From sequence record PV714129.1: 64,000 nucleotides of DNA. One strand, written 5' to 3'. The notes under the pieces were generated by a model, which searched no databases, was not told the origin of the DNA, and saw only the letters and a program-made list of their open reading frames with translations. Positions 25,933 to 27,338 of the stretch are shown in pieces. The position numbers and the translations under genes are program-made. Source of the DNA: Escherichia phage Mizar. Numbering within the stretch: position 1 is the first letter of the stretch; each line of letters begins with the position of its first letter.

Positions 25933-26172
25933 TTATTTGAATTTCTTGACAATGTTGATATAACGTAAAGCTTCAGCATCGATACTTCCAAGAACACTAT
26001 GAAGAAATGCATCAGCGTAGTATTCCAATTGAACAGGTTCTTTAATCACTTTAGCCGCTTTAGTTTCAAACAGGCCCATAAGGGCCTTTTTAAGAATTTG
26101 TTCGTTAGTGTTCAGTTTAATAGTCAAAATCTCTTCATTAAGTTGGTGATTAAAAGTTTTTCTAGAAATCAT
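25933..26172 (-). CDS. small hypothetical protein (79 aa)
   Basis: ORF with ATG; soluble, unlike T4 Imm at the equivalent position. Confidence 0.45.
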   Translation of the reverse strand: MISRKTFNHQLNEEILTIKLNTNEQILKKALMGLFETKAAKVIKEPVQLEYYADAFLHSVLGSIDAEALRYINIVKKFK

Positions 26173-27338
26173 TCCGGGTACCTCAGAGCGTCATCAGAGT
26201 TAGTTATATCAATAATAGATATAGAGTTTTCTGCTAACCCGTTTTTAGATAATTGACGTTTATAATATCTTTCACAATATGTACACGTCGTCCCGCAGAT
26301 TTCATTAGCACAATCAAAATCTGGATGTCTGAACCACCTTTTTTCTAAAAAGCCATCTAACAAAGAGGTTTCAATATTTACTGTATGTGAAAACTCAGTT
26401 TCATTTTCAAGAGTGAAAATAGTCTCTAAAGGCTTCCACAGTTCTAACAAATTACCTTCAAACTTTTCAGAAGCGTATGCTTCAAGAACTTTCAAAATGT
26501 AGTCTGTGCTACCTGTACGTCCTGAAACTTTGAATTGAGTGATACCAATATCATTATAAAGTTTCAAATCTTGAGGACGAACAAAACGAGTTCTCAACCA
26601 GTTAAATGGGTCTGTATCACGAGCTTTAATGCAGTGTTGCATTGGATACCCGTTTAAGGATTTAGCATCATCAGCTGTAACATCAGTACTATGGAAAATA
26701 TAGCAAGAGTCACGATAGCTACAATGTGTTGTATACCCTTTACCAGCGTTAGAACAGAACTCATTTACAAGAACTTCAAATATTATATTGTTCTTATTGC
26801 AAAACTCTGCTGCACGCTTCAGGAAAGAAACTGAACGGTTCTTATGAATTCCACAGCAGACCTTTTTGATGTTATATTGGTCATGTAAGTATTTGATTTG
26901 AGTTACAGCATCAACATGTAGAATTGTTGAAACTTCAATCTCAATATCTTTATTGACTTCACGAACAATTTCCATAACAACAGGGTTAGCGATAGTAATA
27001 CGCCATACGCCTATTGACCAAAGATACTGAACATAATCCTGAATAGCTTTCTTCTTCCACTCGACTAGTTCTCTTTTTGAACCAGGATTTATCGTGTTGA
27101 GTGTATAGTTAAAGCAAATACCTAATTCGTTACAACGTTTAACGTAATCTTCTAACATCTTTTTGTCAACGTCAGGAAGCCTAAAATCAGGTCTGGCTGC
27201 TACAAAAGCCATTTCTCTTGTAGAGCCGTATACTTCGTTTATCAAGCTATTAGGATAAGTTTTATTGAGCTCTACGATTTTATCAAGAAGAGCTAAATCA
27301 AAATTCGTTCCGATTTTAAAAGTATTCATTTTTTGCAT
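26169..27338 (-). CDS. Cys-rich enzyme of unknown function (389 aa), possible Fe-S/metal-binding protein
   Basis: contains HCSYRDSC and a C-terminal CANEICGTTCTYC cluster (CxxxCxxC embedded); weak SD; sits within the sugar-pathway cluster. Confidence 0.55.
   Translation of the reverse strand: MQKMNTFKIGTNFDLALLDKIVELNKTYPNSLINEVYGSTREMAFVAARPDFRLPDVDKKMLEDYVKRCNELGICFNYTLNTINPGSKRELVEWKKKAIQDYVQYLWSIGVWRITIANPVVMEIVREVNKDIEIEVSTILHVDAVTQIKYLHDQYNIKKVCCGIHKNRSVSFLKRAAEFCNKNNIIFEVLVNEFCSNAGKGYTTHCSYRDSCYIFHSTDVTADDAKSLNGYPMQHCIKARDTDPFNWLRTRFVRPQDLKLYNDIGITQFKVSGRTGSTDYILKVLEAYASEKFEGNLLELWKPLETIFTLENETEFSHTVNIETSLLDGFLEKRWFRHPDFDCANEICGTTCTYCERYYKRQLSKNGLAENSISIIDITNSDDALRYPE

Follow-up and report, generated by a model that had tools for sequence, protein, structure and literature searches.

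The subject of this analysis is a 64,000-nucleotide stretch of Escherichia phage Mizar (PV714129.1; hereafter the window) and, within it, the gene gp50, the orthologue of RB69p050. We consider it probable that gp50 is an O2-independent, prephenate-dependent pyrimidine C5-hydroxylase, providing an anaerobic route parallel to that of the O2-dependent synthase gp48. Its most probable substrate would be deoxycytidine monophosphate (dCMP), yielding 5-hydroxy-dCMP (5hodCMP); the level at which it acts, whether dCMP, deoxyuridine monophosphate (dUMP), deoxycytidine triphosphate (dCTP), or DNA, is much less certain. The pathway to arabinosylated 5-hydroxycytosine (5hoC), in whose cluster gp50 lies, was solved in 2025-2026 and left this conserved gene of the U32 family without a function. 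The gene was already known, annotated as a 'peptidase', and the hydroxylase reading is new to the literature we searched, in which no paper ties a U32 gene to DNA hydroxylation; He et al. 2026 and Mahler et al. 2025 may address the gene. Thomas 2018 and the BASEL 2021 study do not discuss the open reading frame (ORF), and the Thanatos paper modelled the orthologue TH1_065 and reports nothing on it.

Profile and fold comparisons indicate that gp50 is a virus-borne member of the U32 iron-sulfur (Fe-S) protein family. It matches Pfam Peptidase_U32 (PF01136) with 42.2 bits against a gathering cut-off of 22.4 (E 7.4e-11), comparable to the 38.3 bits of E. coli UbiV on the same model, and it has a TIM-barrel fold like that of Mk0906 (PDB 5d88), a Methanopyrus kandleri U32 domain that is 11-14% identical to gp50 and lacks its C-terminal extension with four cysteines (Cys4). 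Weaker fold matches include TIM-barrel reductases such as MTHFR. A sequence search of the PDB returned only noise, and the sole NCBIfam match, to the UbiU equivalog NF047963, was sub-threshold (18.4 bits against a cut-off of 440). When a hidden Markov model (HMM) of the gp50 family, built from 132 sequences, was compared with E. coli proteins, TrhP scored 51 bits, RlhA 45, UbiU 26, and UbiV 5; among these paralogues RlhA was the best hhalign match to the gp50 profile (E 4.6e-5 over 202 columns), the alignment setting HCSYRDSCYIFHS of gp50 against LCVAYSGQCYISHA of RlhA. Neither DUF3656 nor Peptidase_U32_C, which RlhA and TrhP respectively match, is found in gp50. Because these extra domains are absent and the equivalog match falls below its cut-off, gp50 is not an orthologue of RlhA, TrhP, or UbiU. 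The initial annotation had named peptidase U32, TIM-barrel, and radical SAM families as ones to search for, and the first two are borne out while the third is not: the sequence CGTTCTYC does fit the radical SAM signature CX3CXΦC, yet it lies at the C terminus (residues 348-355) behind the conserved C343. We reject this assignment because of that position, the fourth conserved cysteine, and the absence of a match to Pfam Radical_SAM (PF04055) at E<=0.1.

The cysteines had been singled out in the initial annotation as signs of a metal or Fe-S centre, and both elements it named are present: HCSYRDSC at residues 205-212, and a C-terminal cluster with an embedded CxxxCxxC at residues 343-355 (CANEICGTTCTYC, which contains C348-x3-C352-x2-C355). 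An alignment of 132 divergent gp50 homologues has C195, C206, and C236 in every sequence; at position 212, 83 sequences have Cys and 48 have His, and each of C343, C348, C352, and C355 is kept in 125-127. From this conservation pattern we predict two four-ligand metal sites. Site 1 (C195, C206, C212, and C236) occupies the same region as the canonical U32 ligands and is likely a [4Fe-4S] site; C206 and C212 align with C169 and C176 of RlhA, with a difference in register between two profile alignments. Site 2, formed by the C-terminal Cys4, is absent from UbiU, UbiV, and TrhP and specific to the virus-borne subfamily, and we propose that it holds either a second Fe-S cluster serving as an electron relay or Zn. 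The metal-centre candidacy is thereby upheld for eight widely conserved positions, but it does not extend to all 13 cysteines of gp50, as C161 and C180 are conserved in close relatives only. The gp50 proteins form a virus-borne variant of U32 that has an additional Cys4 site and is predicted to act on a DNA precursor.

Several characterized systems indicate what such a protein might do. In ubiquinone synthesis, the anaerobic hydroxylations that require UbiU/V take their oxygen from prephenate (Kazemzadeh Ferizhendi et al. PNAS 2024, PMC10990095). The same prephenate chemistry has been proposed for RlhA and TrhP, and this role for the whole U32 family, which is almost exclusively bacterial, with fewer archaeal members, and most of whose subfamilies are uncharacterised (PMC10990095). 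RlhA (YdcP), the E. coli 23S rRNA 5-hydroxycytidine-2501 synthase, requires both iron and the chorismate/prephenate pathway (PMC10990095 and references therein). It belongs to the same Pfam family as gp50, shares with it the motif C..SCYI.H around the first two cluster cysteines, and carries out the cytosine C5 hydroxylation proposed for gp50; it differs in its length (653 residues), its DUF3656 domain, and its rRNA substrate, whereas gp50 is smaller, virus-borne, and linked to DNA-precursor genes. UbiU and UbiV each bind one [4Fe-4S] cluster through four cysteines and back up the O2-dependent flavin hydroxylases UbiI/H/F (PMC10990095). Like gp50 as we envisage it, they are U32 proteins with a small-molecule substrate and without additional C-terminal domains; unlike gp50, a single chain with two conserved Cys4 sites, they form a heterodimer that works with the carrier UbiT on a lipid. 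TrhP (YegQ) and TrhO are two non-homologous hydroxylases that form one and the same pyrimidine C5-OH, which is the relationship we propose for gp50 and gp48. In 2019 Sakai et al. reportedly described dual routes to 5-hydroxyuridine at tRNA position 34 (tRNA ho5U34), one O2-independent through TrhP and the other O2-dependent through TrhO. The parallel is incomplete in that TrhP carries a U32_C domain and modifies a tRNA uridine, and its O2-using partner is rhodanese-like rather than a ThyA-fold flavoenzyme such as gp48.

Among the neighbours of gp50 is an O2-dependent hydroxylase. RB69 DNA contains mono- and di-arabinosylated 5hoC and not arabinosyl-hydroxymethylcytosine (Lee et al. NAR 2026, PMC13326640); the T4-like sugar cluster presumed in the initial annotation is instead a cluster for arabinosyl-5hoC. 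RB69 gp48 converts dCMP to 5hodCMP in a flavin-dependent reaction whose oxygen atom comes from O2, as established by 18O2 labelling, and gp48 with a kinase suffices for the formation of 5-hydroxydeoxycytidine (5hodC) in E. coli (PMC13326640). The sugar branch, from ribulose 5-phosphate (Ru5P) through arabinose 5-phosphate (A5P), arabinose 1,5-bisphosphate (Ara-1,5-P2), and arabinose 1-phosphate (Ara-1-P) to UDP-arabinofuranose (UDP-Araf), is assigned to gp55, gp52:53, and gp51, and the transferases to gp46:47 and gp3 (PMC13326640). RB69p050 appears in that study only in Table 1, as a 'Sugar or heterocycle reductase' by fold matches, and is absent from the text; the discussion mentions the two RNA pyrimidine-hydroxylation pathways without a link to gp50 (PMC13326640). 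The BASEL annotation calls the gene a 'putative enzyme involved in UDP-arabinose biosynthesis'. Synthases of the gp48/AfhA type (RB69 gp48, DLP3 gp80, and that of HY126) thus make the product proposed for gp50, and the gene for one lies two genes away; they differ in having an unrelated fold, using flavin, taking oxygen from O2, and occurring alone in phages of aerobes. Given its need for O2 and flavin, gp48 would not function in a host deprived of oxygen, for instance gut E. coli. The T4-type pair NrdAB and NrdDG sets a precedent for one T4-like phage having both an O2-dependent and an O2-sensitive enzyme for a single DNA-precursor step, though by analogy only, as families and chemistry are different.

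A link to prephenate comes from chorismate mutase (CM) genes. In Erwinia phage Virsaitis27, U32 and the gp48 homologue flank a 114-aa gene that overlaps each of them by 4 nt and encodes an AroQ chorismate mutase (44.6 bits for Pfam CM_2, whose cut-off is 27; E 3e-7 for PDB 1ybz). The order U32-CM-ThyA-like recurs in Winklervirus and Kanagawavirus, with 4-nt overlaps, and also in Marfavirus, Mosugukvirus, and Gualtarvirus; all five phage chorismate mutases tested exceed the Pfam CM_2 cut-off. CM is encoded in 54 phage records and, among the matches listed, stands beside a thymidylate-synthase-like gene; wherever its long form occurs in these matches, a U32 'peptidase' is present as well. Clusters with the ThyA-like gene only have no CM. 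Shikimate-pathway auxiliary genes are unusual in phages.

The same association is seen outside the Straboviridae. We compared the neighbourhoods of 59 U32 loci, 44 of them non-Straboviridae and 15 Straboviridae. CM, 3-deoxy-D-arabino-heptulosonate 7-phosphate (DAHP) synthase, or a DAHP synthase-CM (DAHPS-CM) fusion lies near the U32 gene in 13 of the 44, and CM/DAHPS genes accompany U32 in 6 of 28 lineages (70% identity clusters, Straboviridae counted). An HMM built from five T4-like phage CMs confirmed 10 of the 11 non-Straboviridae CM matches, and jumbo-phage contigs of 190-290 kb carry U32, CM, and glycosyltransferase genes contiguously. In locus L007, the gene directly after U32 is a DAHP synthase (237 and 216 bits); the alternative assignment of this DAHP_synth_1 gene as a 3-deoxy-D-manno-octulosonate 8-phosphate (KDO8P) synthase, which would fit sugar chemistry with an A5P isomerase nearby, is rejected at 63 bits. 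DAHPS-CM fusions of the B. subtilis AroA type are found near U32 at L049 8399-9430, L051 3-968, L052 7290-8354, L054 8323-9384, L063 11082-12200, and in L077 (33 nt upstream).

These distant loci also connect U32 with the 5hoC pathway, largely without gp48. A glycosyltransferase of the gp46:47 type, the most consistent neighbour of the U32 gene in distant phages, is present in 30 of the 44 non-Straboviridae loci, often immediately upstream of U32; a gp45-type kinase is present in 34 of 44, often adjacent; and a ThyA-like gene is present in one. The recurring order is kinase, sometimes a radical SAM gene, glycosyltransferase, U32, and PolIII alpha. A dCMP deaminase gene directly borders U32 in L001, L018, and L066, and nine loci have one no farther than about 10 kb away. 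Since the ThyA-like gene is almost always absent, U32 is the only visible candidate there for the enzyme that makes the hydroxyl acceptor. A scan of one genome per species over 185,579 species yielded 12 U32 loci, most of them on contigs binned to strict anaerobes (bins of Erysipelotrichales, Oscillospiraceae, Gastranaerophilaceae, Romboutsia, Tannerella, deer-colon Clostridia, and Angelakisella) and one in a prophage-like block of Phocaeicola faecalis FXJYN30E22, which is a cultured isolate. A ThyA-like gene is missing from all 12, and four of them carry CM or a DAHPS-CM fusion. Whether phages own a distinct, essentially virus-specific U32 branch that is the first DNA-directed prephenate-dependent hydroxylase, and the main, possibly ancestral, route to 5-hydroxypyrimidines in phages of strict anaerobes, is a question on which we judge the evidence to be evenly balanced.

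Individual loci have further genes beside U32. A radical SAM/SPASM-type gene accompanies the glycosyltransferase-U32 pair in several metagenomic phage lineages, namely L001 (1314-2249), L009 (5972-7000), L019 (7980-9011), and L069; its best NCBIfam similarities, to a tungsten-cofactor maturase, MoaA, and viperin-like proteins, are weak, and it may serve a further base or sugar modification or act with the U32 enzyme. L008 (9098-10000 and 13073-14179), from a U32-only metagenomic phage, has a TET-associated-type DNA glycosyltransferase (TAGT) gene immediately after U32, with dUTPase/DCD and UDP-galactopyranose mutase genes nearby, a gene content that suggests galactofuranosylated 5-hydroxypyrimidine DNA made without a ThyA-like enzyme. 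In the Phocaeicola faecalis block, a guanylate-kinase-methyltransferase fusion is encoded two genes upstream of U32 (L084 3936-5213).

The distribution of gp50 among T4-like phages is consistent with an accessory role tied to oxygen. By tblastn, 221 phage records encode a gp50 homologue, none below 80% identity, and their hosts are Enterobacterales or Shewanella, both facultative anaerobes, in the top ten genera and in all matches listed; no Tequatrovirus is among the 221, in agreement with the earlier remark that T4 has no counterpart. A gp48 homologue, by contrast, is encoded in 373 phage records, of which 57 come from Acinetobacter phages and 20 from Rhizobium phages; neither of these host genera is represented among the U32 matches listed. 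Konradin (Acinetobacter), PspYZU05 (Pseudomonas), and VR5 (an E. coli Dhakavirus) have the rest of the cluster, namely the isomerase (unconfirmed in VR5), nucleotidyltransferase/kinase, HAD, ThyA-like, glycosyltransferase, and kinase genes, and neither U32 nor CM. In Konradin and PspYZU05 nothing intervenes between the HAD gene and the ThyA-like gene that comes after it, an arrangement shared by DLP3, and in VR5 the gp45-type kinase gene alone lies between them. These clusters without U32 mark gp50 as an accessory module, one that has been added in the interval from the HAD gene to the ThyA-like gene; it is dispensable for the sugar and transferase steps, and the published pathway needs no extra enzyme. 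In Winklervirus a Seg-like homing endonuclease gene lies between HAD and U32 (L002 5352-5990, L086 671-1309), at the very junction where phage groups differ in having or lacking the U32-CM module. The window also encodes the anaerobic ribonucleotide reductase NrdD (Pfam NRDD, 571 bits, with a glycyl-radical domain) and its activase NrdG (Fer4_12, 165 bits), and the phage therefore appears equipped for replication without O2.

A possible mechanism can be borrowed from the proposal for UbiU/V. The pyrimidine ring would lose two electrons through the Fe-S site or sites, with site 1 in the barrel and site 2 perhaps acting as a relay; prephenate would decarboxylate, aromatise to phenylpyruvate, and give its hydroxyl to C5. 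Once the phage kinases had phosphorylated the 5-hydroxy product, the polymerase would incorporate it, and gp46:47 and the second transferase would add the glycosyl groups.

The first alternative retains this chemistry and changes the substrate level, gp50 acting on dUMP, dCTP, or cytosines in DNA. RlhA and TrhP, its closest E. coli relatives, act on polynucleotides, and the dCMP deaminase genes near U32, together with the dUTPase/DCD gene of L008, would fit dUMP in some phages. However, gp50 lacks the C-terminal domains of the RNA enzymes and is built like the small-molecule proteins UbiU/V, the kinase in 34 of the 44 loci fits a mononucleotide product, and gp48 itself acts on dCMP; we regard another level as rather unlikely.

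The initial annotation had also suggested that gp50 adds a step to the pathway, by epimerisation, mutase, or redox chemistry on the sugar or base. Redox chemistry on the base is the option that the evidence favours, while a sugar epimerase or mutase is unsupported, because the UDP-arabinose route is complete without gp50 and whole phage groups run it without U32. It is improbable for similar reasons that gp50 is the 'sugar or heterocycle reductase' of its published label, or that it serves the arabinose or base pathway as some other auxiliary redox enzyme. The gene does lie inside the arabinosylation cluster, its predicted Fe-S sites imply redox chemistry, and reductases such as MTHFR are among its weaker fold matches; but the route from Ru5P to UDP-Araf contains no reduction step, the label derives from fold matches alone, and DLP3 and other Acinetobacter phages make arabinosyl-5hoC without the gene. 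In distant phages, moreover, U32 travels with the genes for the glycosyltransferase, the kinase, and prephenate supply even where arabinose genes are missing, and a reductase leaves the linkage to CM and DAHP synthase unexplained.

Marginally less probable still is that gp50 is a phage analogue of TrhP or RlhA, hydroxylating tRNA (ho5U34) or rRNA (5-hydroxycytidine, ho5C) and so tuning translation. T4-like phages encode tRNAs, TrhP and RlhA are the best-scoring E. coli relatives of gp50, and one metagenomic lineage has a CCA-adding-type enzyme nearby, all of which would suit an RNA substrate. Against this, the U32 gene is embedded in modules for DNA precursors and DNA glycosylation beside the replicative polymerase, it is absent from T4 and other hydroxymethylcytosine phages with equal translational needs, the C-terminal domains of the RNA enzymes are missing, and the host already has TrhP, TrhO, and RlhA.

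We consider it very unlikely that gp50 is a helper of gp48, supplying electrons or flavin or acting in its maturation: one small ORF separates the two genes in 15 of 15 Straboviridae loci, but gp48 and a kinase are enough for 5hodC in E. coli (PMC13326640), gp48 occurs without U32 in phages of aerobic hosts and in Dhakavirus, and U32 occurs without a ThyA-like gene in 43 of the 44 non-Straboviridae loci. That gp50 is a collagenase-like U32 peptidase processing, for example, a phage or host protein, as its GenBank, PHROG, and Pfam names (collagenase-like U32 'peptidase') imply, is hardly credible, since the family name stems from a few collagenase reports while the genetically characterised members are hydroxylation factors (PMC10990095), the gene context is nucleotide and DNA modification and not morphogenesis, and proteolysis leaves the eight conserved, predicted metal ligands and the CM linkage unexplained.

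A number of observations weigh against gp50 being an anaerobic hydroxylase. U32 hydroxylase activity has never been reconstituted in vitro for RlhA, TrhP, or UbiU/V (PMC10990095), and no biochemical or genetic test of gp50 was found in the literature we searched. The spacing of site 1, C195-x10-C206-x5-C212-x23-C236, differs from the canonical E. coli U32 [4Fe-4S] motif CX6CX15-16CX3C (CX38C in UbiU), which RlhA follows as C169-x6-C176-x15-C192-x3-C196 without the C-terminal Cys4 that gp50 has of its own. Dhakaviruses infect E. coli without U32, which shows that some enteric 5hoC phages can do without the gene. Phage clades do not count as independent samples, and few evolutionary events therefore stand behind the niche correlation. 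Absence of ThyA-like genes was judged from flanks of about 6-10 kb around U32, and binning supplied the host names of contigs from metagenome-assembled genomes. Finally, the Mizar window has no CM, and a prephenate-dependent gp50 would therefore depend on the host enzymes PheA/TyrA.

If gp50 is such a hydroxylase, it would explain how gut phages with fully replaced cytosine replicate where their hosts live despite an O2-requiring gp48. On the broader reading of a virus-specific U32 branch, phages of strict anaerobes would pair the U32 enzyme with a 5hoC-type glycosyltransferase and a nucleotide kinase, and the viromes of gut and rumen would hold a great deal of glycosylated 5-hydroxypyrimidine DNA that has so far gone unrecognised; T4-like phages of facultative anaerobes would keep U32 beside the ThyA-fold enzyme as an oxygen-niche switch, and some phages would bring CM or DAHP synthase to raise the supply of the oxygen donor. 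Phage DNA modification, and hence sensitivity to restriction, CRISPR, and type IV systems, would become O2-dependent, a matter of relevance to gut phage therapy. Prephenate-dependent hydroxylation would extend from RNA and quinones to DNA and viruses, and a small U32 enzyme with a soluble substrate could allow the first in vitro reconstitution of U32 hydroxylation.

The features of the window are collected in the table below. The ORF of gp50 has the position first described; it is read from the minus strand, begins with ATG, and follows the HAD gene in the same orientation.

Table. Features of the Mizar window discussed in the text (positions are those of the window).
Feature	Position	Strand	Remarks
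gp50, U32-family gene	26169..27338	minus	RB69p050 orthologue; ATG start (M1), 389 aa
Alternative gp50 start, M4	27329	minus	386-aa product
Peptidase_U32 core of gp50	26472..27050	minus	Residues 97-289, part of TIM barrel; Pfam match
Predicted metal site 1	26631..26756	minus	C195, C206, C212, C236 codons, including HCSYRDSC; conservation and RlhA alignment
Predicted metal site 2	26274..26312	minus	C343-x4-C348-x3-C352-x2-C355 (CANEICGTTCTYC); conserved C-terminal Cys4
Sigma70-like TTTAAA-16-TATAAT	27411..27384	minus	Over HAD gene end, about 45 nt 5' of gp50
gp45, thymidylate-kinase-like nucleotide kinase	23725..24273	minus	
gp46:47-type DNA glycosyltransferase	24275..25174	minus	Proposed first arabinosyltransferase on 5hoC
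gp48, ThyA-like 5hodCMP synthase	25174..25890	minus	237/238 identity with RB69 gp48
79-aa ORF, RB69p049	25933..26172	minus	In slot of other genera's CM
gp51, HAD phosphatase	27385..27786	minus	AfhF analogue, UDP-arabinose branch; upstream neighbour of gp50
gp52:53, bifunctional nucleotidyltransferase/kinase	27771..29456	minus	AfhE analogue
Small ORF	29511..29663	minus	Between A5P isomerase and nucleotidyltransferase/kinase genes
gp55, A5P isomerase	29638..30273	minus	
NrdG activase	44828..45301	minus	
NrdD, anaerobic ribonucleotide reductase	45295..47121	minus	
122-aa ORF	62641..63006	minus	C-terminal glycyl-radical domain

The gp50 protein is identical to RB69p050 at 387 of 389 positions and to the HY126 orthologue at 385 of 386, and its DNA is 98-99% identical to about 150 Escherichia and Shigella phage records; by these identities, the source of the window is an RB69-like T4-type phage of the genus Mosigvirus. 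The 30 nucleotide differences from HY126 change a single amino acid (dN/dS = 0.008), and because of this disparity gp50 is a real gene and no chance ORF. Against other genera dN/dS is about 0.03, and the substitution pattern indicates that purifying selection on gp50 is strong. Translation may in truth begin at M4 instead of M1; M4 is the annotated start in HY126 and agrees with several orthologues. As noted initially, the Shine-Dalgarno sequence is weak, since a GAG directly abuts the M1 ATG and the start is ambiguous. Translational coupling to the upstream gene finds no support, as 46 nt separate the gp50 start from the stop codon of the HAD gene; it is instead with the downstream 79-aa ORF that gp50 overlaps, its stop sharing ATGA (26169-26172) with the start of that ORF. 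Counts of sigma70-like sites in a promoter and terminator scan around gp50 were not above those of shuffled controls, and no conclusion is drawn from the site in the table. Inspection of the 46-nt gap by eye for FNR sites revealed one TTGAT half-site and no full site.

The 79-aa ORF is an orphan confined to Mosigvirus and is truncated to 40-58 aa in several phages, including HY126. The CM in the same slot of other genera has 79-125 aa, and we considered whether the ORF is a degenerate CM; the hhalign probability was 0.06% and BLAST was not significant, no Pfam match was found at E<=10, and the CM HMM run across the window gave E 0.2 or worse. Given its position in the CM slot, its orphan status, and its frequent truncation, the ORF may be a replacement or a decaying gene.

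Three further observations concern the remaining genes of the window. One uninterrupted ORF each encodes the glycosyltransferase (299 aa) and the nucleotidyltransferase/kinase (561 aa), whereas the RB69 reference splits the same genes into p046/p047 and p052/p053, which fits the view of Lee et al. that the splits are sequencing errors (PMC13326640). The small ORF beside the A5P isomerase gene is annotated in RB69 (p054), HY126, and Virsaitis27, with 36-47 aa. The 122-aa ORF, whose C-terminal glycyl-radical domain contains RVCGY (Pfam Gly_radical, 67 bits), resembles a stand-alone spare glycyl-radical module of the GrcA/YfiD type.

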